Numbered from the stretch's first letter, positions 5,242 to 64,000 are shown. The stretch is DNA of 64,000 bases from Candidatus Moraniibacteriota bacterium (GCA_049287345.1 JBAQFQ010000010.1:7795-71794); one strand, 5' to 3'. Notes: generated by a model from the sequence alone, not told the origin. Numbers and translations: made by a program.

Positions 5242-6276
5242 CTATTTTTGTTGAGATACATGGGGACGCATTAACATGCACTGCAATTGAGTATTTATCA
5301 TTGCAGCCACAATTTTCATACGACACTGTTCATTGTGATTCTTGAAGTTGCCATCGATAGAATCAATGGAGGACCATGAAGGTAGCGAATTTCTTACCGA
5401 CAAAACGAGCGCCAAATCCTGAGCATCTTTAAATTTATATTCAAGACCTTGGAAGTTTTGCACATTTCCCGCTCTCCAAATTCTAACATCATTGGAGTAA
5501 TAATCGGCGCTTCTAATGTTGGTCTTATCCAAGTTTTCTCCGTGTGTTATGCGAGCATAAACAGGTATTCCGCAATAATCACCAACACGGAATTCTTTCC
5601 GACCGCTTTCTTTGTAGGCACCAATAATTCCATCAGTCACTTCACCTTTTCCATTAATAGTAATATCTGGCAATGATATTTTTAGCTGATCAATCATGTG
5701 AGAAAAATCAATTATTTGATCATTGCTGTTACTTTCACATCTGCCCGAAAGAGGTATCCAAGATGATATAGATTCCATGAAAAGTTGAGGGAGAAGCATG
5801 CTATCCAGATTAGCTCTCATGGATTCTATGGCAAACATCCCGCTTTTATGTTCACCCTCTAGTTTTATCCCGAGACTATCTCCAATTTTCATAATATTGA
5901 AGACTGATTTATTGGCGGACACTTCAAATGTTGCTCTATCTTTTTTTAAAACAATTATGGAAAAGATATCACTCTTTGAAATATCGCCCGATATCGAGCT
6001 CAACTTCCACAAAAAATCATCCTCATCTTTTACCCCACCCTTCTCTTTCCGCATATATTTAAACCATTCTACTAAATACTTCGCGGTAAATATCGTTAGA
6101 GTAATTTCAAAATCACTCCTTCTTTCTCCCTCACTTTTCCGACTATCGCCTAAGAAAAAATTAGGAATATAGAAAGGGTACCTTCTCTCTGCCGTAGCTT
6201 TAAAACCAACCCTGGCGAACGTTGAATCTAGAGAGAAAAAATTTGGCTCTTTTGATAATAATTCAGATTTGTTCAT
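5242..6276 (-). CDS. Hypothetical protein (344 aa), no recognisable family
   Basis: Long ORF; ATG at 6276 preceded by GGAGG. The track start at 6366 is upstream and is not the ATG. Somewhat higher GC than its neighbours. Confidence 0.6.
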   Translation of the reverse strand: MNKSELLSKEPNFFSLDSTFARVGFKATAERRYPFYIPNFFLGDSRKSEGERRSDFEITLTIFTAKYLVEWFKYMRKEKGGVKDEDDFLWKLSSISGDISKSDIFSIIVLKKDRATFEVSANKSVFNIMKIGDSLGIKLEGEHKSGMFAIESMRANLDSMLLPQLFMESISSWIPLSGRCESNSNDQIIDFSHMIDQLKISLPDITINGKGEVTDGIIGAYKESGRKEFRVGDYCGIPVYARITHGENLDKTNIRSADYYSNDVRIWRAGNVQNFQGLEYKFKDAQDLALVLSVRNSLPSWSSIDSIDGNFKNHNEQCRMKIVAAMINTQLQCMLMRPHVSQQK

Positions 6277-6559
6277 GGTAACCTCCAAATAAAAAGAACT
6301 TGTTTTTGATAGCTCGTAAGCTATTCCGCCAGACGTATCCGGCAGGACAAAGCAGGGATATCCCACCTTACCTCTTGATGTACATTAATATATGCACCAT
6401 AAGCTAGGCATGATATTTGATTATTAAATTTATACCCGAAGACACTAAAAGTCAAATAAAATCTAGCTAAATTAGATTAGTTTATGTTAAAATATAATTA
6501 ATAAGGTAATCTATCATCAGCAATCAAACATTAACTAAATAAAAATTAATCTCAACTCT

Positions 6560-6958
6560 ATGCAAAAAATAATCATTGCCTCCGGGCCGGTTATCATCGA
6601 GGATAACAAAATATTATTAGATATATCAGGAGATGACAATTTCTGGAAATTTTGCGGAGGAAAAATGAAAGATCTAGAAAACCTTCGAGAAACCGCAACT
6701 AGGAGAGCTCAGGAGGAACTAGGAATCAAAATTGAAATTTTAGATGAAAATCCTTTCCTACTCTACACTATCAAAGAAGCTCCCGAGGGCAATATTGATG
6801 TCGTCTTAGTTCATTATTTAGCTAAAAGAATTGGGAAGATAGTTCCTGGTGAAGATATTCAAGAGTGGAAATGGATTGCCATCGAAAATCTAAAAAACGA
6901 AAATCTCGCCCCTAATATAATGCCGACATTGACTCATTTTAATTTTATAAAAAAATAA
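6560..6958 (+). CDS. NUDIX hydrolase
   Basis: Nudix box GGKMKDLENLRETATRRAQEELGI. Confidence 0.8.
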   Translation: MQKIIIASGPVIIEDNKILLDISGDDNFWKFCGGKMKDLENLRETATRRAQEELGIKIEILDENPFLLYTIKEAPEGNIDVVLVHYLAKRIGKIVPGEDIQEWKWIAIENLKNENLAPNIMPTLTHFNFIKK

Positions 6959-6992
6959 TCTTCCAAAAAAATCAACTTCAGAAGACATAAAT

Positions 6993-7028
6993 AAAACACT
7001 TCAATATATCGATATATTGAAGTGTTTT
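6993..7028. terminator. Perfect 36-nt palindrome (16-bp AT-rich stem) downstream of the NUDIX gene; terminator or operator
   Basis: aaaacacttcaatatatcgatatattgaagtgtttt is its own reverse complement. Confidence 0.5.
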
Positions 7029-7334
7029 AAATTTAATTATTAAATATTGAATGAGAATTGAGTATTGGATATTGGAAATTAAAGTATAAATTAAGGATAA
7101 CATCTCCAGAGAAACCCACTCTTTCTATCACTTAACGGATACTGTCGAAAAATAACGCTTATTATTTTTCTTGCCATAAACCCCCTATTCTGCTAAACTA
7201 ATGGTAACTTGTTCGTGCATCTTTTCGTTTAACTAATAAATAAGTTTAGTACGCGGTCGAAACAAGATAGTAAAATACAATCAATTGATTATTCGTAAAT
7301 AATATTTATAAATAATCAAAGAAAATTTAGTATT

Positions 7335-7628
7335 ATGGCAAAGAAATTATATGTAGGAAATCTTCCTTATTCTCTAAAAGATGGGGACCTAAATCAACTT
7401 TTTACTCAAGCTGGAGCTGTTGAGTCTGCTACTATCATCAATGATAAAGCAACTGGAAGAAGCAAAGGTTTTGGTTTTGTTGAAATGTCTGCTGATGATG
7501 AGGCTCAAAAAGCTATCGAAATGTTTGATGGTCAAGAGTTAGAAGGTAGAAAACTTACAGTCAACGAAGCTCGTCCAATGCAACCACGAGAAGACCGCGG
7601 TGGTTTCAGAGGGGGAAATAGATTCTAA
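7335..7628 (+). CDS. RRM-type RNA-binding protein
   Basis: RNP-2 LYVGNL, RNP-1 KGFGFVEM, Gly/Arg tail; long 5' UTR. Confidence 0.85.
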   Translation: MAKKLYVGNLPYSLKDGDLNQLFTQAGAVESATIINDKATGRSKGFGFVEMSADDEAQKAIEMFDGQELEGRKLTVNEARPMQPREDRGGFRGGNRF

Positions 7629-7636
7629 TTTATCAT

Positions 7637-7680
7637 GTCACTCAACCTGTCGTTCGCGAACGACAGGTCTCATGAGTGAC
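7637..7680 (+). terminator. Long hairpin terminator after the RRM gene
   Basis: GTCACTCAACCTGTCGTTCG / CGAACGACAGGTCTCATGAGTGAC followed by a T-rich tract. Confidence 0.7.
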
Positions 7681-7704
7681 TTGATTTATTTTAGAAACTT
7701 TTTA

Positions 7705-7738
7705 AAAAGCATCTCGCAAGAGATGCTTTTTTATTTGA
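7705..7738 (+). terminator. Second rho-independent terminator
   Basis: GCATCTC-gcaa-GAGATGC followed by TTTTTT. Confidence 0.75.
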
Positions 7739-7833
7739 CTAATTTTCAATTTTCATACTATCATAGCGATAGTTCTTGATAACCACACAGGTTGTGTATC
7801 TATCCATTATATTTAAAAAAGGAGAAATTTTCC

Positions 7834-8145
7834 ATGTCCAGAGGCTATAATATTGATCTCTCTAATACCCAGGGAATAATTATCGCCATGGGTGAGATTG
7901 AAGAATTTGTAAGAATTCTAAAGACCAACTTAATTCTAACCATGGTAGATGAGTTGATAGCTAGAGAACGCTTTGGTTTTAGTTTTAAAATAGTGAATAT
8001 TCAAGCACGGACAGCTATCGCTAACTTCAATTTAGAAAATTTTTTAACCCTTCTCAATAAAAGAATTTCTCTAGAGATGGCAATTGAAAGATCTAAAAAA
8101 AATCTCGATCTCCTTTCTTATCAGTTAATTTATTTAAGGAAGTAA
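7834..8145 (+). CDS. Hypothetical protein (103 aa)
   Basis: ATG at 7834 preceded by AGGAG; the upstream M of the track ORF lacks an SD. Confidence 0.5.
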   Translation: MSRGYNIDLSNTQGIIIAMGEIEEFVRILKTNLILTMVDELIARERFGFSFKIVNIQARTAIANFNLENFLTLLNKRISLEMAIERSKKNLDLLSYQLIYLRK

Positions 8146-16988: not shown

Positions 16989-17822
16989 TTAGACAGAATC
17001 ATTCAAGCTCTTATCAGGAAATAATTCCAGAGCCTTCTTAATTCTTGTCTTTCTCCTTTCAAACACAAATCCTTCGCCCGTTCTACTGCAACCATACCTT
17101 TTCTCGATAAATGGCGAATTCACAGCATCTCGAAGTTGAGTTGCGGCTTCTTTCCAGTCGGTAATATATTTCCTCAAAGCTTTGAGCTCAGCTTCATGAT
17201 CTTCAATGAGCCTGCATTTTTCTTCTTTCCATCCATATTCATTGATTGTAGACAATTCAATTTCCTCATAAAGAACTGCCTTGTTTGCCTCTAACTGGCT
17301 ATTCACTTCTTGCAAATATTTAGCTTCCTGCTCCAGATGTGCACATCTTCCCTGGATATCAATTTGCTTCTGAGTTTCCTGGGCAGCTAACATCAATTCC
17401 TCAAGGTCAATGTGCCCGACAAGAAATTTACAGCAAGCATTCGCATCGCCGACGAAAAATACTCCGTCGCTAGCATTAGGATCAGTTGAAAAAAGTTTTC
17501 CTTGAGTTTTCATCTCGATATATCCATCGGGATTAATGATTCCCAATCGATCTCCAGAAGGAATCCAATTTCTCTGTGCGTCAAAAGAAATCTTATCTTC
17601 TTTCCATTGAAGATAAATAAATGTGTAGGAGCCGGCAATTTTTACCGCCAACAATTCATCTCTTTCGTTGGAAAAATTAACCACAAATGAACTTGATCCC
17701 TCTTCTCCGCCAAGCACATCTTCAACTGAACATCCCAAGAGCCTAATAACATAGTTGAATTTCCCGTCAATAAGAACAGTTTTTCCATTTATTGTAACTG
17801 CAATATTCTGACTCCATAACAT
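16989..17822 (-). CDS. Hypothetical protein (277 aa) with a coiled-coil C-terminal half, inserted between prfA and prmC
   Basis: ATG at 17822 with GGAGGTG 5 nt upstream; no recognisable family. Confidence 0.65.
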   Translation of the reverse strand: MLWSQNIAVTINGKTVLIDGKFNYVIRLLGCSVEDVLGGEEGSSSFVVNFSNERDELLAVKIAGSYTFIYLQWKEDKISFDAQRNWIPSGDRLGIINPDGYIEMKTQGKLFSTDPNASDGVFFVGDANACCKFLVGHIDLEELMLAAQETQKQIDIQGRCAHLEQEAKYLQEVNSQLEANKAVLYEEIELSTINEYGWKEEKCRLIEDHEAELKALRKYITDWKEAATQLRDAVNSPFIEKRYGCSRTGEGFVFERRKTRIKKALELFPDKSLNDSV

Positions 17823-55442: not shown

Positions 55443-55874
55443 CTATACAGCGATAACTGAGGTGGCCGTCAAATCAACATTGGAGGAGGCCAGCATTTTT
55501 CCGGCGTGGAAAAAGTTACCTCCGGAACTGGCGGTGATGTCGGTATTACCGAGGTTTAGCTTATTCCATTGTGCACAACTGTATCTCATGTCAGAGGAAG
55601 GGGCAGTTTGTGCGGAGTTGATGAGCTGAAAATTGCCTTGGATGATACCGCGGGTAGCATTGATTGTAACCGGGTGAATCATCTGACCAAACAGTTCAGT
55701 GGAGCCGCCGACAATATCCGTGGGCGGGGTACCTCCTGTATTTGTCGACATCATCACACAATCATTTATCATGGCCGGGCCGCCGACGCAGTTTGCTGCG
55801 AATCCGCTCGATAACGTCATCAAGGCGAGCATCATCACCAATCCTGCCAGAGAAAAACAGAATTTTTTTTTCAT
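55443..55874 (-). CDS. Secreted protein (143 aa, signal peptide) in a GC-rich compositional island; possible pilin/SCPU-like surface protein
   Basis: Signal peptide MKKKFCFSLAGLVMMLALMTLSSGFAA; GC near 50 percent versus about 33 percent background. The family call is only a guess. Confidence 0.55.
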   Translation of the reverse strand: MKKKFCFSLAGLVMMLALMTLSSGFAANCVGGPAMINDCVMMSTNTGGTPPTDIVGGSTELFGQMIHPVTINATRGIIQGNFQLINSAQTAPSSDMRYSCAQWNKLNLGNTDITASSGGNFFHAGKMLASSNVDLTATSVIAV

Positions 55875-58221: not shown

Positions 58222-58437
58222 CTACTTAATTTTTCCCTTTAATTCACTCTGCTCACTCGAACTTAAAAATTTACCCTCTTTTTTAAATTCATCACTTATT
58301 CGGCTCAAGGCTTTATCTGCTTCAATTCTCTTATTTTCAAAATCTCTCTCAATATCTCTCAAATTAGATTTTTGATAATCCCTAAGTGCGATTCCTTTGG
58401 CTGCGGCAAACTTTTCTACTTCATTTTTTATACCCAT
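58222..58437 (-). CDS. Small hypothetical protein (71 aa)
   Basis: ORF with ATG; charged helical. Confidence 0.45.
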   Translation of the reverse strand: MGIKNEVEKFAAAKGIALRDYQKSNLRDIERDFENKRIEADKALSRISDEFKKEGKFLSSSEQSELKGKIK

Positions 58438-58565: not shown

Positions 58566-58994
58566 TCACATTTCCCTTATCTGAATTTCCAACTTCTTTA
58601 TCTCCCGATCCATATCTCGCATATCATCTTGAATTTTCTCCTTCTCATGGCTTTTTTTCCTCACCAGTGAATCCGCCTCGATCGATTTTTCCTGCATTCT
58701 AAGCAAATCTTGCTCCAGCATCTTCTTATTCTTTTTACTGTCTTCAATATTTTGAGTAAGTCTATTGATTTCGTTTTCCAGCGCTCGCAATCTCCCCTTT
58801 TTGCTTTCAATATCATCATTTAACTGATCTCGCTCACGAATAGAATATTGGTTTTCTAAATTAATCTTTTCTATCTTGGCACTTTCCCGATGATATTCTT
58901 CTTTCTTGGCAGTTAAATCTCTACGCAAAGAGGCTCTCGCCATCCTCAACTCATCTGGGTTCATATTATCCTTTGATTGAGTATTGTAATTCAT
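58566..58994 (-). CDS. Coiled-coil protein (142 aa), hypothetical
   Basis: Continuous heptad-like Glu/Lys/Arg/Leu-rich sequence. Confidence 0.5.
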   Translation of the reverse strand: MNYNTQSKDNMNPDELRMARASLRRDLTAKKEEYHRESAKIEKINLENQYSIRERDQLNDDIESKKGRLRALENEINRLTQNIEDSKKNKKMLEQDLLRMQEKSIEADSLVRKKSHEKEKIQDDMRDMDREIKKLEIQIREM

Positions 58995-59102: not shown

Positions 59103-60305
59103 TCAAACAATTATCCCGCCACCCAAAACTTCTCCCTGCTCTGTATAAAAAACTGCCGACTGTCCAGGAGTAATCGCTCGTTGATTATTTTTTAATTTTA
59201 CCCGATAACTATCCATCCCATCCTCCTCTATTGTAGCATATTCTGCCTGTCCATGATAACGCACAACTGTTTTTGCTAGCAAGGGAAACTTCAAAGCTGA
59301 ATTTATCCAACTCGCCTTAATGATACCAAACTCATCACAAGCTAAGTCTCCAATGTCGTTAGAAACTACCAATTGATTATTTGCCAATCTTTTTTCAATA
59401 ACAAAATATGGACCATCACCACCCAAATTAATCCCCTTCCGCTGACCAATAGTATAAAAATGTAGCCCCTGATGTTTACCCAAGGTTTTACCCGCTTTAT
59501 CCACAATTTCACCAGGCTTGTTGATAACTTTTTCGCCGATAAACTTACCGAAATCATTATTAGCGATGAAACAAATATCTTGAGATTCTTCCTCGTTTTT
59601 TATCTCAAAACCATTCTCTTTGGCGATTTCTCGCACCTCACTTTTTAAATAATCTCCTAAAGGAAAAATGATTCTCGCTAACTGCTCTTGGGTTAAGCGA
59701 TAAAGAAAATATGATTGATCTTTGCTGTGGTCCCTAGCAACCGATAAGGAGTAGTTCACAGTTTCTAGTTTATAGTTCACGGATAATGATTGAGATTTTT
59801 TTTCAAATATATCGCCTATTCTCTTCGCTAAATTTGAAATTTGAAATTTATTTGATATTTGGTATTTGATATTTGGTATTTCTTCATGTTCCATGCTCGA
59901 TGATTCATATTCCACGATTCTCGCGTAGTGACCAGTTGAAACATACTGTATCTTTCTTTTATCTGCCTCCTCTATTAAAATCTTAAACTTCATTTCTGGA
60001 TTACAAAAAACACAAGGGTTGGGAGTAATTCCCTTTTCATAATCAGCTACAAACTTATCAATAATTTCTTTTTTAAAAATTTCTCGTGCATCAATTTTAT
60101 CAATTGAGATGTTTAATTTTTTTGCCACTGCTTGGGCTTTTTGGAAATCCTTCCCACTCTTATCCCCACCAATAAAATCCAAAAATACTCCGCTCACCTC
60201 ATAACCCTCTTTTTGCAAAAGCAAAGCCGTCACGCTGGAGTCCACCCCACCGCTCATACCTACTAGCACCTGGCATTTTTTTAATTTCAACTCTTCATTT
60301 GACAT
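59103..60305 (-). CDS. mnmA: tRNA 2-thiouridine(34) synthase MnmA, with an in-frame low-complexity insertion
   Basis: PP-loop SGGVDSS, CVFCN, a C-terminal barrel. Insertion of about 60 aa encoded partly by AT-rich tandem repeats at 59831-59881. Confidence 0.88.
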   Translation of the reverse strand: MSNEELKLKKCQVLVGMSGGVDSSVTALLLQKEGYEVSGVFLDFIGGDKSGKDFQKAQAVAKKLNISIDKIDAREIFKKEIIDKFVADYEKGITPNPCVFCNPEMKFKILIEEADKRKIQYVSTGHYARIVEYESSSMEHEEIPNIKYQISNKFQISNLAKRIGDIFEKKSQSLSVNYKLETVNYSLSVARDHSKDQSYFLYRLTQEQLARIIFPLGDYLKSEVREIAKENGFEIKNEEESQDICFIANNDFGKFIGEKVINKPGEIVDKAGKTLGKHQGLHFYTIGQRKGINLGGDGPYFVIEKRLANNQLVVSNDIGDLACDEFGIIKASWINSALKFPLLAKTVVRYHGQAEYATIEEDGMDSYRVKLKNNQRAITPGQSAVFYTEQGEVLGGGIIV

Positions 60306-60536
60306 ACTTCTTAACGTTACATTTATTTAACCCCGTGATTCCAAGGTACTCATTGGAATTTTACGGGGCATACCCACTAATACCTTTTGCTTTTTTAATT
60401 ATGAATTTTTATCTAACATAATTCAACCCCATATTTACTTGTTTTTTAGTCGTTATTGACTATAATTAGTGTATACAATGTATCCAAAAATAACAATATT
60501 ATATATTCTATACAAAAACACTTCGTATATAAACAA

Positions 60537-61475
60537 GTTATCGGAAATAAAGAAAAAACCTTTTTACTTATTTTTATATAATTTCGGCAATTTATTTTTT
60601 TAAATAATTCAAAAAATATGAACAAAGAAAAACCAGAAGTGCAAAAAATTGTTATTGATATGGGTCACACATGGACTCCCGAGGAGAGGCAACAGAAAGA
60701 ACAACGCGAGAGAAATGAAAAAGAAACGGATAATTCCCAAGAGCAAAAAGAATATCCGAAAAAGTTTAGTTCAGCTCGAGAATATATAAAAAATCTCATA
60801 AGCTTATTTGATAATCCTAGCGGTGATGCTGATGAAGAAATAATGCAGGAATGGCAAGAGGCAGAGGCTGATTTGGATTGTGGCAATGAAAGAGCGGTTA
60901 TGGAGAAATTAGAGTATATGGCTGGAGCGCAACGTTCAACTTCCAAGACAAAAAAGGACTCTAAGTTATGGAGAAAGGCTATTTTTGAAATAACAAAAGA
61001 GACTAGTGGAACTTCTCGGCTCATGAATTCGGAAGCAATCAGTGGAGCTCTTTATGATGAATATATGAAATTGGATGAAGAAATGATCAAAGTTTTGGAT
61101 GAAAATCCAGGAGATTTTAATGATAAAGATAGGCAAGAATATAAGAAAGAGGTTTCACGATGGCACAATGCTTTTAACGAAGTGGCGAATAATGGACGTT
61201 TGGAAAATGCAATGATTTTATTAGAAGAAGAAATTAACGATAAGGTTAGAGATGATCATGATTTACGCAGAGAAATTGAACAAGTTACTAAAGGCAAATC
61301 TCCAAATATTGACTATATCAACAGAACTAAAGAAAAAATAAAAGCTAATTCTAACAAGTTAGCTACCTATAGAAGAATGCGAGATTCCTTATATGCTATT
61401 GAATTTAATGATAAAAAATAAATTGCCGAAATTATTTCACTAAGGAATAAAGGTTTTTTCATTACATCCGATAAC
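60537..61475. mobile_element. Single-gene cassette bounded by roughly 53-nt imperfect inverted repeats
   Basis: Left 60537-60590 gttatcggaaataaagaaaaaacctttttacttatttttatataatttcggcaa. The reverse complement of the right end 61423-61475 reads gttatcggatgtaatgaaaaaacctttattccttagtgaaataatttcggcaa. Confidence 0.55.
60618..61421 (+). CDS. Hypothetical acidic protein (267 aa) carried inside the IR-bounded cassette
   Basis: ORF with ATG; Glu/Lys/Asp-rich; no transposase motifs recognisable. Confidence 0.55.
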   Translation: MNKEKPEVQKIVIDMGHTWTPEERQQKEQRERNEKETDNSQEQKEYPKKFSSAREYIKNLISLFDNPSGDADEEIMQEWQEAEADLDCGNERAVMEKLEYMAGAQRSTSKTKKDSKLWRKAIFEITKETSGTSRLMNSEAISGALYDEYMKLDEEMIKVLDENPGDFNDKDRQEYKKEVSRWHNAFNEVANNGRLENAMILLEEEINDKVRDDHDLRREIEQVTKGKSPNIDYINRTKEKIKANSNKLATYRRMRDSLYAIEFNDKK

Positions 61476-61696
61476 AAAGAATGTCTGGTTCAAAAAATTT
61501 GCCGCAGTTAAAACTAAAAGGAGGGCAAATTTTTCCCTCCCGAATCCCGAACTTTTCCGTTTTGCTGCAATTCAGAGTATAATGAAATTAGTAAAGTAAG
61601 TAAGAATATTAAGGTTTTGTGCATAGAAACCAAAGTGCAGGACTTCAGATATTCTTAACGTTAGGCGAAACTTTCTTTCAAATTATTTTTTACTTA

Positions 61697-61728
61697 TAAA
61701 AAAGGCGTTGACTGTATAGTCAACGCCC
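61697..61728. terminator. Bidirectional terminator
   Basis: GGCGTTGAC-tgtata-GTCAACGCC with an A-run upstream; a T-run follows in minus sense. Confidence 0.8.
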
Positions 61729-61755
61729 TAGGCTTGAACAAATCTGTTCTAGAAA

Positions 61756-61962
61756 TTACTTCCTCTCATACACAACAAAGAGCTCAGCAATATATCCATA
61801 GCAAGTTGTGATAACCATGGGCTTGTGGTATAGAATTAAGAGTGGCACAATTTGCCAACTGGTTACGAGAATATCTTCCCGTGTTAACCACTTACGGAGA
61901 GTTTTTTCCGCATCTCCAATCGCGTCTTCCGTTTCAAAACTCACTCTTTCTAAGGTTGCCAT
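61756..61962 (-). CDS. Small hypothetical protein (68 aa)
   Basis: ATG with GGAGG 4 nt upstream. Confidence 0.55.
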   Translation of the reverse strand: MATLERVSFETEDAIGDAEKTLRKWLTREDILVTSWQIVPLLILYHKPMVITTCYGYIAELFVVYERK

Positions 61963-62429
61963 GTTACCTCCTTTAATGTTTTCGTAAGAGAGTAAATTAT
62001 CCTAATAACGAGAATCCTCTCTTTGGGTTAAAAGATGAATTCTCACCTGAGCTATTGATAAACCATCTTAACAGAAGCAATTAATTTGTAAAGGCCCACA
62101 GGCAATGGATTAAAAAGTAATTTATATTTTTATACCAAACTAACAAAAATATCTTCTTTGGCTTTGATGAGACAGGCATTCTTTCTGAATTTATTTATTT
62201 GGGAAAAGAATTAACGGAGGAATTATTAGGAGAAAAAATAATAACTTTTCTAGAAATGTATCACAATAATAAAATCAAGAAAAAGATGGAGGCCTTATTT
62301 AAATAACAGTGCTGATTAGCTCCCATCCGATACGCTGTGGCGCTAATTTAACAAAATTAATACCGCAATAAAAAAATCGCGTAGGATATCTCCTGCGCGA
62401 TTTGGCTTAATCCAATAAGCACAATGTGC

Positions 62430-62645
62430 TTATTCACCTTTTTTCGAAAAAAATATTTTAACAATTGCTAGGCTCACCAGAAAACAAACTACGGCAGAGA
62501 CAACTCCCCATATCTCCGGCTTAATCTTAAACCAATACCCAATGTAAATTGTGGGAATAATCAAGAGACAAAACACCATCAAAATCTTATTTATTTCTGC
62601 TAATATGCTTTTTATATCTCCCTTTTCTTCCATAACCCCTCCCAT
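62430..62645 (-). CDS. Small membrane protein (71 aa, 2 TM), hypothetical
   Basis: Two hydrophobic helices. Confidence 0.5.
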   Translation of the reverse strand: MGGVMEEKGDIKSILAEINKILMVFCLLIIPTIYIGYWFKIKPEIWGVVSAVVCFLVSLAIVKIFFSKKGE

Positions 62646-62701
62646 TTAAAATAAATAGCTGCTACTTATCAAATTAACACGCAGCTTAATTTGTCGAAAA
62701 G

Positions 62702-63178
62702 CTACAATTTATTGGCCCCATTCATTGCTTCATTAATGTCACAAATATTATTAACGTAAATAATGCCATCTCCCCCATTTTGCAGGTCTAGTAGACACAT
62801 TTCAATTGGGCTTAAAACGCGCTTAACCTCACCTGGTGGATACCAGAAACCCATTCTATCGGCCATCTCACCACAATGCACACAGCCGACATATGAATTA
62901 CTCTCTTTATCATAAAGCACAGCATATTCTGGCATTTTTTGATCTTTATCCTCGAGAGAATAGAGTGTGATTGGCTGACCAATAAAAATAGCCTCGCCAC
63001 ACCAAGCGCACCTGATGGTCATTTTCTCCAAACAACGATGACAATAGGGAGCTTTTCCATCAATGATAGCGATTTCAAGCTCGCCAGTTTCACCAAAGGC
63101 GGATACCTCATCTGTTTTGAAGGTTTTGTGCCCACAATCAGCCATAATTTTTTTCCTGAAAATATTAAAGAACTTCAT
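62702..63178 (-). CDS. Cys/His-rich putative zinc-ribbon protein (158 aa), hypothetical
   Basis: CGH, CHRC, CAWCG, CVHCG motifs suggest two zinc-binding sites. Confidence 0.55.
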   Translation of the reverse strand: MKFFNIFRKKIMADCGHKTFKTDEVSAFGETGELEIAIIDGKAPYCHRCLEKMTIRCAWCGEAIFIGQPITLYSLEDKDQKMPEYAVLYDKESNSYVGCVHCGEMADRMGFWYPPGEVKRVLSPIEMCLLDLQNGGDGIIYVNNICDINEAMNGANKL

Positions 63179-63354
63179 TTGCTTTCCTCCTTTTTTAAAT
63201 TTTCTAAATTTATGGATTCTGCACTATTTTGACCCTAAATTAAAAAAATAATAATGTCAATAAAAAAGAGCGATATATTTCAATCGCTCCCGGCCAAATT
63301 ATTGACCACTATCCATCAGATTGACTGATAAAAAAACTACCAAGACTACAAGTC

Positions 63355-63555
63355 CTACTTGTTGGAAGATTTAATGCGCTCCCAGATACTGGCGCCCTCA
63401 GCCCAAAAACTCTCGCGCGTTAGGCTGGATATCTTATATAAGAAATAAATATCTGACCCCTTAATGCAGATACCAATAAACTTAGCATCTTTACTAAGCC
63501 CCAATTTGTTGAAAGCTTCTTTGGCTGCCGCTTGAAATTCTGTCCAGTCATTCAT
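63355..63555 (-). CDS. Small hypothetical protein (66 aa)
   Basis: ORF with ATG. Confidence 0.45.
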   Translation of the reverse strand: MNDWTEFQAAAKEAFNKLGLSKDAKFIGICIKGSDIYFLYKISSLTRESFWAEGASIWERIKSSNK

Positions 63556-63756
63556 GGCAATCTCCTCATTTTTTAAATGAACATACTTAACCTTCCTCTA
63601 ACTGCTCACCTAAACTATCAAAAAAAATGACTACTTGCAAGAGTGCAGCATACTTAGTAAGACAATCATAATCTTTCCCCTTCGCATATCCTAAGTTTGA
63701 TTTGCCTCAATTTTTCTGCTAAAATTAGGACGTAATTCCCTTAAATTAAATTGATA

Positions 63757-63987
63757 ATGATACATATTTTAAAAAATATAATCTGGATAGTTGGTTTCAT
63801 AGTAGTGACTGGGTTTGTTTTAAATTATTTTGGCTACGAAATAAATAAAAATTATTTTCAGGAAAGAAAATCTGATTGCCAAGAAAAACTCAAGTTCTGT
63901 CAAAATGAACTATTACACCAAGGTTTAGACAACGCTAAGTGTGATTTTAATTGTCTAGATCCCAAACTCATAATTCGCAAAAAATAA
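63757..63987 (+). CDS. Small membrane protein with a Cys-rich tail, hypothetical
   Basis: ATG at 63757; one TM helix; CxxxC...CxxxC. Confidence 0.45.
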   Translation: MIHILKNIIWIVGFIVVTGFVLNYFGYEINKNYFQERKSDCQEKLKFCQNELLHQGLDNAKCDFNCLDPKLIIRKK

Positions 63988-64000
63988 TATCCCGATATAA

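Follow-up and report, generated by a model that had tools for sequence, protein, structure and literature searches.

A probable remnant of an integron-like cassette array in the strain-variable gene island beside mnmA of a Moranbacteria genome

In a 64,000-nt stretch of a Candidatus Moraniibacteriota genome (GCA_049287345.1, JBAQFQ010000010.1:7795-71794; hereafter the window), mnmA is followed by a group of short open reading frames (ORFs) that an earlier note, made from the sequence alone, had described as a terminal accessory island of small, Cys-rich and membrane proteins. Our analysis indicates that this island is probably a recombinase-less and partly decayed remnant of an integron-like cassette array, situated at the mnmA end of a slot that varies between strains and reaches from mnmA to the conserved block of o78, Lnb_N and lepA. 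The decisive feature of the island, which the earlier note had missed, is non-coding and consists of an attC-like site together with a split inverted repeat around a gene for a 267-aa protein, o267. The accessory, non-housekeeping nature of the region was borne out, as neither a match to a housekeeping family nor synteny in relatives was found. The evidence is computational throughout and stems from three related lineages, with the window itself holding the putative remnant.

The proposed mechanism is that, in related Moranbacteria, a Xer/IntI-like tyrosine recombinase would face a row of co-oriented cassettes, each of which would terminate in an attC-like folded site of roughly 90-210 nt. Recombination would occur at the G|TT within the motif ...ACG|TT-NNNN-GAAAT, presumably on single-stranded DNA in its folded form, and since this point lies inside the site, an excised cassette would carry a complete hairpin site. 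After integration, the 3' part of the hairpin would then sit at the start of the cassette. Applied to the window, positions 60538-61660 would represent an intact cassette and positions 61661-~62340 a second, decayed one, while three genes located further on (o71tm, o158 and o66) would be independently transcribed, led by Shine-Dalgarno (SD) sequences, and subject, within this flux-prone slot, to gain, loss and exchange through ordinary indels and the replacement of alleles.

The attC-like site and its cassettes

The region surrounding the attC-like site (61429-61703) is 85% identical to that of a Moranbacteria genome (L007) despite a protein identity of only about 64%, and searches with nhmmer revealed the element to be multi-copy in this genome and in two further relatives (L067 and L063). 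A multi-helix fold derived from five copies comprised 48 pairs with 93.6% of the cells paired, and 19 of these pairs displayed double compensatory changes, compared to 10.6 ± 2.1 in shuffled controls (0/500) and 0-4 in slid controls. The covariance model R1 matched the window site with 218 bits (E 8e-48), and according to this model, 20 kb of L007 hold 6-7 full-length copies, 21 kb of L067 hold 9-10, L063 holds two and the window a single one. Copies within one locus all have a single orientation and lie 0.1-1.6 kb apart, with ORFs between them and a single gap of 4.5 kb. One unusually long 'cassette' (4.5 kb) in the L007 array holds a gene for an 806-aa protein (5539-7959, minus strand), which, judged by eye, appears to resemble an N6-adenine DNA methylase or restriction-type enzyme.

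The ends of the element read [T]ACATC-NNNN-AAC... and ...ACTTC...ACG|TT-NNNN-GAAAT, with the AAC and GTT triplets invariant among the copies. They resemble the boxes of integron attC sites, R'' (RYYYAAC) and R' (G|TTRRRY), and the window copy, having GTTAGGC, fits the consensus GTTRRRY. The four nucleotides following an element k were found to be the reverse complement of the NNNN in the R'' box of element k+1, and not of its own. This rule held at 41/48 positions, with 8/12 junctions perfect, compared to 2.07 of 4 for an element's own flank, and none of 100,000 random pairings reached this score. It is exactly the pattern expected if cassettes are discrete units that have been recombined at G|TT. 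The window cassette follows the rule at all four positions, as GTT-ATCG-GAAAT at 60537 is exactly complementary to the CGAT of the R'' box (61469-61472, within 61465-61475), and so does the first cassette of L007, where the start beside the recombinase gene (GTT-GTGC-GAAAT) matches the R'' sequence GCAC of the first element perfectly. Complementarity between cassette start and end extended further (up to about 60 nt) and was significant in at least 8/15 cassettes of the relatives, in each case with the stretch upstream of the cassette's own site.

The covariation would fit RNA folding equally well, with the plus strand fitting better than the minus strand, and the element occupies 3' untranslated region (3'UTR) positions of co-oriented genes and contains a conserved -10-like box. 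A structured RNA, either a 3'UTR or terminator module or a small RNA, might thus have been copied behind many genes, leaving the island as a patch of orphan genes. We regard this explanation as unlikely, since it accounts neither for the four-nucleotide complementarity from one element to the next nor for the complementarity of the cassette starts, which spans up to about 60 nt, and the linkage to a divergent recombinase gene described below, and it lacks an Rfam match: a gathering-threshold search of the window returned only five tRNAs (64-1239), and an E-value mode search of positions 60300-64000 gave one chance-level match, located on a terminator, and none for the element. A minus-strand small RNA was rejected as a reading of the element (fold z-score -0.7, covariation term 0), as were the terminator hairpins as candidate attC sites, these being plain GC stems followed by T-runs and devoid of boxes.

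The anatomy of the cassettes in the window (Table 1) agrees with an integron-like array. The composite 3'-end motif has only two matches in the entire 64 kb (60520-60547 and 61642-61670), and these bracket o267. When positions 61413-61660 were rejoined to positions 60538-60602, a single uninterrupted stem of -97.0 kcal/mol (z -10) resulted, compared to -63.7 kcal/mol (z -2.2) in the chromosomal context. The two arms of the 64-nt inverted repeat are 84.6% identical over 65 nt according to BLAST, with the inner 23 nt perfect, and the repeat is explained as a split helix whose left arm would have been displaced to the cassette start by integration. An inverted repeat bracketing o267, along with the multi-copy and intergenic nature of the element, could also suggest non-autonomous transposons with terminal inverted repeats, either resembling miniature inverted-repeat transposable elements (MITEs) or derived from insertion sequences, with o267 trapped between two of them. 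Such an origin is decidedly unlikely, as each array displays one orientation and a regular, gene-sized spacing, no target-site duplications or transposase were seen, and variable sequence with conserved pairing, like the complementarity between successive elements, is not a property of MITEs.

The second cassette of the putative array is less well preserved. Positions 61642-61727 share 83% identity with the start of a cassette in L007 (3231-3320), the hairpin showing compensatory changes, and this homology covers the first approximately 70 nt of the cassette. A possible gene remnant without a start codon, which the earlier note had pointed out, was confirmed at 62157-62306, with stops in all frames upstream, and is probably the truncated cargo of this cassette. 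It is followed by a truncated R''-like box (CATCCGATAC, 62324-62333). The crossover region of the complete site has a counterpart elsewhere in the window: the sequence CTTAACGTTA occurs at 61654-61663 and directly upstream of the mnmA start codon (60310-60319), and nowhere else in the window. A closely related strain (L070) has the motif as well, and the copy upstream of mnmA could be a chance occurrence or a secondary integration site.

Table 1. Coordinates of the features in and around the island, counted from the first nucleotide of the window
Feature	Position	Strand	Description
3' end fragment of preceding attC-like site	60520..60547	+	ACTTCGTATATAAACAAG|TTATCGGAAA; crossover between 60537 and 60538
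Left arm of 64-nt inverted repeat	60537..60600	+	3' half of helix P0 of the site of cassette 1
Cassette 1, intact, 1123 nt	60538..61660	+	267-aa ORF and its recombination site; bounded by two G|TT motifs; absent from L070
o267	60618..61421	+	267 aa
Right arm of 64-nt inverted repeat	61413..61475	+	5' half of P0; overlaps o267 stop codon and R'' box TACATC-CGAT-AAC
attC-like structured site	61463..61671	+	R'' box, long-range helix P1, hairpin P2, helix P3 with two inner hairpins, R' ACG|TTAGGCGAAAC
Cassette 2, decayed	61661..62340 (end approximate)	+	start TTAGGCGAAAC...; antisense o68, start-less sense ORF tail, truncated R''-like box; absent from L070
Intrinsic terminator of o68	61702..61729	-	12-bp stem followed by T-run
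o68	61756..61962	-	68 aa; AGGAGG SD; antisense to cassette direction; unannotated in source record
Start-less ORF tail	62157..62306	+	...FGFDETGILSEF...ALFK; R''-like remnant 17 nt after
Terminator of o158-o71tm transcript	62370..62405	-	directly follows o158 in L070
o71tm, 2-transmembrane mini-protein	62430..62633	-	67 aa; GGAGGGG SD; on 255-nt indel
o71tm as first called	62430..62645	-	71 aa
o158	62702..63178	-	158 aa
Promoter-like site for o158	63232..63260	-	TTGACA-17-TAGGGT, predicted from sequence
Intrinsic terminator of o66	63266..63291	-	predicted
Remnant of 133-aa gene (last 27 nt)	63309..63336	-	gene present in L070, deleted in window
o66, lineage-restricted	63355..63555	-	66 aa; GAGGAG SD; divergent allele (vs L070 518-718)
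o78	63751..63987 or 63757..63987	+	78 or 76 aa; backbone gene

Strain variation and the arrays of related genomes

Two contigs (L070 and L071) of a strain approximately 94% identical to the window have the gene order mnmA, about 200 nt, o158, a 133-aa gene, an o66 allele (o66') and o78. Compared to this strain, the window carries an extra segment of 1.9 kb (60440-62357), which holds both cassettes, and an extra 255 nt (62420-62674), which correspond to the two-transmembrane (2-TM) ORF o71tm placed between o158 and its terminator. The genes o158, o78 and mnmA differ from their L070 orthologs with a dS of about 0.22 and dN/dS values of 0.05-0.10. Distant relatives have kept alaS, o71b, o142 and mnmA, with different genes filling the slot up to o78; the island is thus not retained in conserved synteny in all relatives, as both L070 and the distant genomes differ from it. 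A module of 'T-run + TTGACA-17-TAGGGT' located downstream of the o66 terminator (63230-63267) has a second, 74%-identical copy downstream of the o158-o71tm terminator (62338-62375), and it is within this second copy that the 1.9-kb segment has its right breakpoint (62358).

An ordinary hypervariable slot, filled with orphan genes by illegitimate recombination and carrying the attC-like site as a passenger with no present role, would be compatible with the indels outside the cassettes (the o71tm insertion and the deletion of the 133-aa gene), which show only microhomology, as well as with the replaced o66 allele and the absence of a recombinase from the window. It is nevertheless quite an unlikely explanation, given that site fragments mark the limits of the 1.9-kb strain-specific segment, which has an intact cassette within it, and that the position of the island matches that of arrays in relatives.

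These arrays are divergent from a gene for a Xer/IntI-like tyrosine recombinase of approximately 275-285 aa. The recombinase gene lies directly beside mnmA in four relatives (L063, L064, L066 and L067), which is the position of the island here, in matching orientation. Co-oriented cassettes divergent from the recombinase gene are present in L007 and L067, and an attI site was deduced in L007 only. The recombinases passed the cut-off of the family NF040815 ('site-specific tyrosine recombinase/integron integrase'), and the integron-integrase model scored above those of XerC/D. Sense ORFs in the arrays of relatives lack an SD sequence, as does o267, while antisense cassette ORFs are led by one. 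The L007 ortholog of o158 is located within a cassette and, as in the window, runs antisense to the array; L007 is also the only genome in which a tyrosine recombinase gene was found near a member of the o158 family. A cassette past for o158 is plausible because of this arrangement, though unproven, and o66 may likewise once have been a cassette.

Several observations weigh against an integron-like origin. No recombinase gene is present in the 64-kb window, and the recombinases of the relatives scored 206/230 bits with the model TIGR02249, which is below its cut-off of 265 bits; the match splits in two and skips the middle of the model, so that the IntI-specific insert is missing. Among 68 sources, convincing R1 copies were limited to three related lineages. 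The window itself holds a single complete site (61463-61671) and two fragments (60520-60547 and 62324-62333), no site flanks o158, o71tm or o66, and the R''-like remnant at 62324 has CGAT where GCCT would be expected for cassette 2. In L067, the junction next to the recombinase gene fits poorly (2/4). Moreover, the sites exceed canonical attC sites in length, and their crossover is central instead of near the 3' end.

Genes of the island and their translation signals

All six ORFs that the earlier note had listed downstream of mnmA were recovered on both strands at the same positions (Table 1), including the last one, read as 78 or 76 aa. The larger intergenic gaps were also real (312, 334, 467, 68, 176 and 201 nt, compared to a backbone median of 117 nt), and the coding fraction of the island was 0.58, compared to at least 0.82 elsewhere. 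Other parts of the earlier description did not hold. A region-wide rise in GC content was refuted (0.339 in the island compared to 0.350 in the window, with a standard deviation of 0.012 among windows of the same size), the locally GC-richer genes being only o68, o158 and o66 (GC 0.40-0.42; third-position GC, GC3, 0.38-0.49, compared to a backbone GC3 of 0.30 ± 0.05). The 'terminal' position is an artefact of the window edge, as the source contig measures 75.6 kb. The last ORF, o78, belongs to the conserved backbone and lies outside the island: it encodes a membrane-anchored mini-protein with four Cys, which is 96% identical in L070 and 84% identical in a further relative (L065, where it adjoins Lnb_N and lepA), with a dN/dS of 0.05. 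In the source record, the stretch carries the locus tags WAV16_01565 to WAV16_01595, and the jump from WAV16_01580 to WAV16_01585 corresponds to the unannotated o68. Scans of all six ORFs against Pfam, NCBIfam, PADLOC and PHROGs gave nothing above cut-off. A phage origin of the island was rejected, as IMG/VR contained no relatives of o158 or o267 and no copies of the attC-like element.

The strong SD sequences of the island, which the earlier note had contrasted with most genes of the window, are real and unusual. Four of the six island ORFs carry AGGAGG (o68 and o158), GGAGGGG (o71tm) or GAGGAG (o66) at proper spacing, compared to an SD core of at least 5 nt in only 2/67 window ORFs of at least 90 aa; 59 of these 67 have no SD-like core and are preceded by A/T-rich leaders. 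The SD-led starts in the window, four of about seven of which fall in the island, all belong to hypothetical proteins without a Pfam domain (5242-6276, minus strand; 7834-8145, plus strand; 16989-17822, minus strand; and those within 61756-63555). Among the relatives of o158, a strong, AGGAGG-type SD is kept across Patescibacteria, with a core of at least 5 nt in 39/55 loci, compared to 12.4% of the ORFs nearby when these were scored just as generously (Fisher p ~1e-20). AGGAGG-led ORFs in these loci mostly encode small hypothetical proteins and show a modest clustering around the family gene (2.5-fold, p 0.005). Elsewhere in the window, a 143-aa ORF (55443-55874, minus strand) preceded by GAGG is a composition outlier, with a GC content of 0.49 and a GC3 of 0.56. 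In a survey of 16S rRNAs, the anti-SD motif was detected in only 48% of Parcubacteria (PMC9297842). The striking division between housekeeping genes, which lack an SD sequence, and accessory genes, which are led by one, is relevant to the initiation of translation in this group.

The Cys/His-rich character that the earlier note had assigned to the 158-aa protein was confirmed, with seven conserved Cys and one His arranged in four knuckles (C15xH17, C46xxC49, C57xxC60 and C99xxC102). H17, C46, C49, C57, C60, C99 and C102 are invariant and C15 is nearly so, a pattern sufficient for two zinc sites. The stand-alone protein o158 probably binds two zinc ions. The family is large, restricted to Patescibacteria and uncharacterised: 37 close homologs and 56 loci (L007-L062) were collected across Patescibacteria genomes, and a profile search returned 789 clusters (50% identity) at E ≤ 1e-3, all of them stand-alone proteins of about 105-235 aa. 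The ortholog in L070 is 96% identical, with a dN/dS of 0.10. The AlphaFold2 (AF2) model had a mean confidence (pLDDT) of 88.6, and no fold match with E < 0.3 was found in the PDB or BFVD, nor any significant sequence match in the PDB. With the double zinc ribbon (DZR, PF12773), which the earlier note had suggested, o158 shares CxxC knuckles at zinc-ribbon spacing, and the match is weak (residues 39-63, E 0.013, below cut-off). It differs from DZR in that the knuckles lie within a 150-aa beta-rich domain with the conserved motifs RCAWCGxPIFIGDPITLY and GFWYPPG.

The earlier note had also proposed that o158 and the adjacent 2-TM mini-protein form a pair, possibly a toxin-antitoxin or defence-like system. 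The two genes share a transcript here, with 56-68 nt and no terminator separating them, approximately 16% of the o158 family members have N-terminal TM helices of their own, and L070 has a toxin-antitoxin-like bicistron of 66 and 133 aa that could stand for a similar system of o66 and a partner. However, the 2-TM ORF is missing at the locus of the 96%-identical ortholog in L070, and no homolog of it follows the family gene at any of the other 56 loci. The o158 family has no conserved neighbour at all, no neighbouring gene family recurring in more than 3 of 53 loci, and the 133-aa partner of o66 has been deleted in the window. PADLOC, Pfam, NCBIfam and PHROGs gave nothing significant, and neither a type II toxin-antitoxin system nor a known anti-phage defence system was recognised. 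A system of this kind is therefore very improbable, and o158 is not a partner of the 2-TM protein. The 71-aa ORF of the latter most likely starts at M5 (62633), giving the 67 aa annotated in the source record; it forms a singleton cluster and is absent from both L070 and L071.

The remaining genes are similarly obscure. The cargo of cassette 1, o267, encodes an acidic, all-helical protein (AF2 pLDDT 79.9, 10 helices) without a fold match in the PDB, and it is co-oriented with the attC-like site. Ten homologs (38-63% identity) are scattered over Candidate Phyla Radiation (CPR) contexts. In one of these (L073), the homolog is followed by a gene with a Bro-N domain (6795-7247, Pfam E 1.5e-13), and in another (L074) a DDE transposase fragment and a gene for a PemK toxin are found nearby, both contexts being mobile-element-flavoured. 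No homologs of o68 were found in the loci of relatives that were examined, and a 67-aa ORF behind the o267 homolog of L074 was rejected as a candidate since it has no similarity. For o66, only one other homolog was found among 5.8 billion proteins. Its dS of 0.95 relative to the L070 allele is about four-fold that of the flanking genes (about 0.22), which, together with a dN/dS of 0.19, indicates an allele replaced by recombination under purifying selection. In L070, the o66 and 133-aa genes form an SD-linked bicistron.

Two further features lie near mnmA. Between alaS and mnmA, hypothetical genes for a 71-aa protein (58222-58437, minus strand) and a 142-aa coiled-coil protein (58566-58994, minus strand) have kept their synteny in L065-L067 (47-65% identity) and are core genes, not accessory ones. 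The 5' leader of mnmA (60325-60395, minus strand; L070 2100-2170; L065 9925-10000) is conserved and contains a long hairpin, CCCCGTAAAATTCCAATGAGTACCTTGGAATCACGGGG. The leader is approximately 78% identical in a relative whose mnmA is only 60% identical, has no Rfam match and may be a cis-regulatory element.

Relation to integrons and other modular systems

A broader proposition, which we put forward tentatively and consider somewhat less probable than not, is that Moranbacteria, and perhaps other Patescibacteria, run a hitherto unrecognised integron-type gene-capture system, in which a short enzyme of Xer/IntI-like type, devoid of the IntI domain, would act on a folded site of more than 200 nt that is cut mid-structure. 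Such a system might represent an evolutionary intermediate between Xer/dif recombination and classical integrons, and its arrays could serve as a reservoir supplying these reduced genomes with small orphan proteins led by an SD, among them the 158-aa zinc family. CPR bacteria have tiny genomes and poorly understood routes of gene acquisition, and a cassette system would account for local hotspots of small orphan genes and offer a concrete, testable route of gene flux between strains. With long atypical sites and an integrase devoid of the additional domain, it would evade standard integron finders. The analysis also draws attention to the o158 family as a large, uncharacterised group of probable zinc proteins. 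Integrons have been reported for many phyla and for Archaea in the literature searched, and no publication that connects CPR lineages with integrons or attC sites was found in open-access text.

The closest known systems are sedentary chromosomal integrons and clusters of attC sites lacking integron integrases (CALINs). In common with these, the arrays of the relatives have a tyrosine recombinase gene divergent from co-oriented, mostly promoter-less small cassettes of obscure function, each with an imperfect palindrome at its end that folds and carries AAC...GTT boxes, and antisense cassettes carry their own expression signals. The crossover at G|TT is as in integrons, which means that the 3' box of each site belongs to the next cassette. 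The window itself, with one complete site, one 3' fragment and one R''-like fragment, and no integrase, resembles a CALIN or a decayed array, a CALIN being defined by at least two attC sites close together without an integrase. The differences concern the enzyme, the sites and the host. The recombinases of the relatives lack the IntI-specific additional domain around patch III. The sites measure 87-211 nt, with extra helices and an outer helix (P0) of up to about 60 bp, compared to 57-141 nt for canonical attC sites, and they have conserved flanks (ACATC... and ...GAAAT) that are not attC features. As the crossover lies mid-structure, the cassettes are bracketed by long inverted repeats, unlike those of integrons, and the host is a CPR bacterium.

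Integrative mobile elements exploiting Xer (IMEX) and the pdif modules of Acinetobacter plasmids are likewise based on a recombinase of the Xer family and on modular units of small genes bounded by recombination sites, with arrays at one chromosomal site. Their dif and pdif sites are, however, 28-bp duplexes with conserved arms, which alternate in orientation in pdif modules, whereas the sites described here are long, folded and covarying, and all lie in direct orientation.

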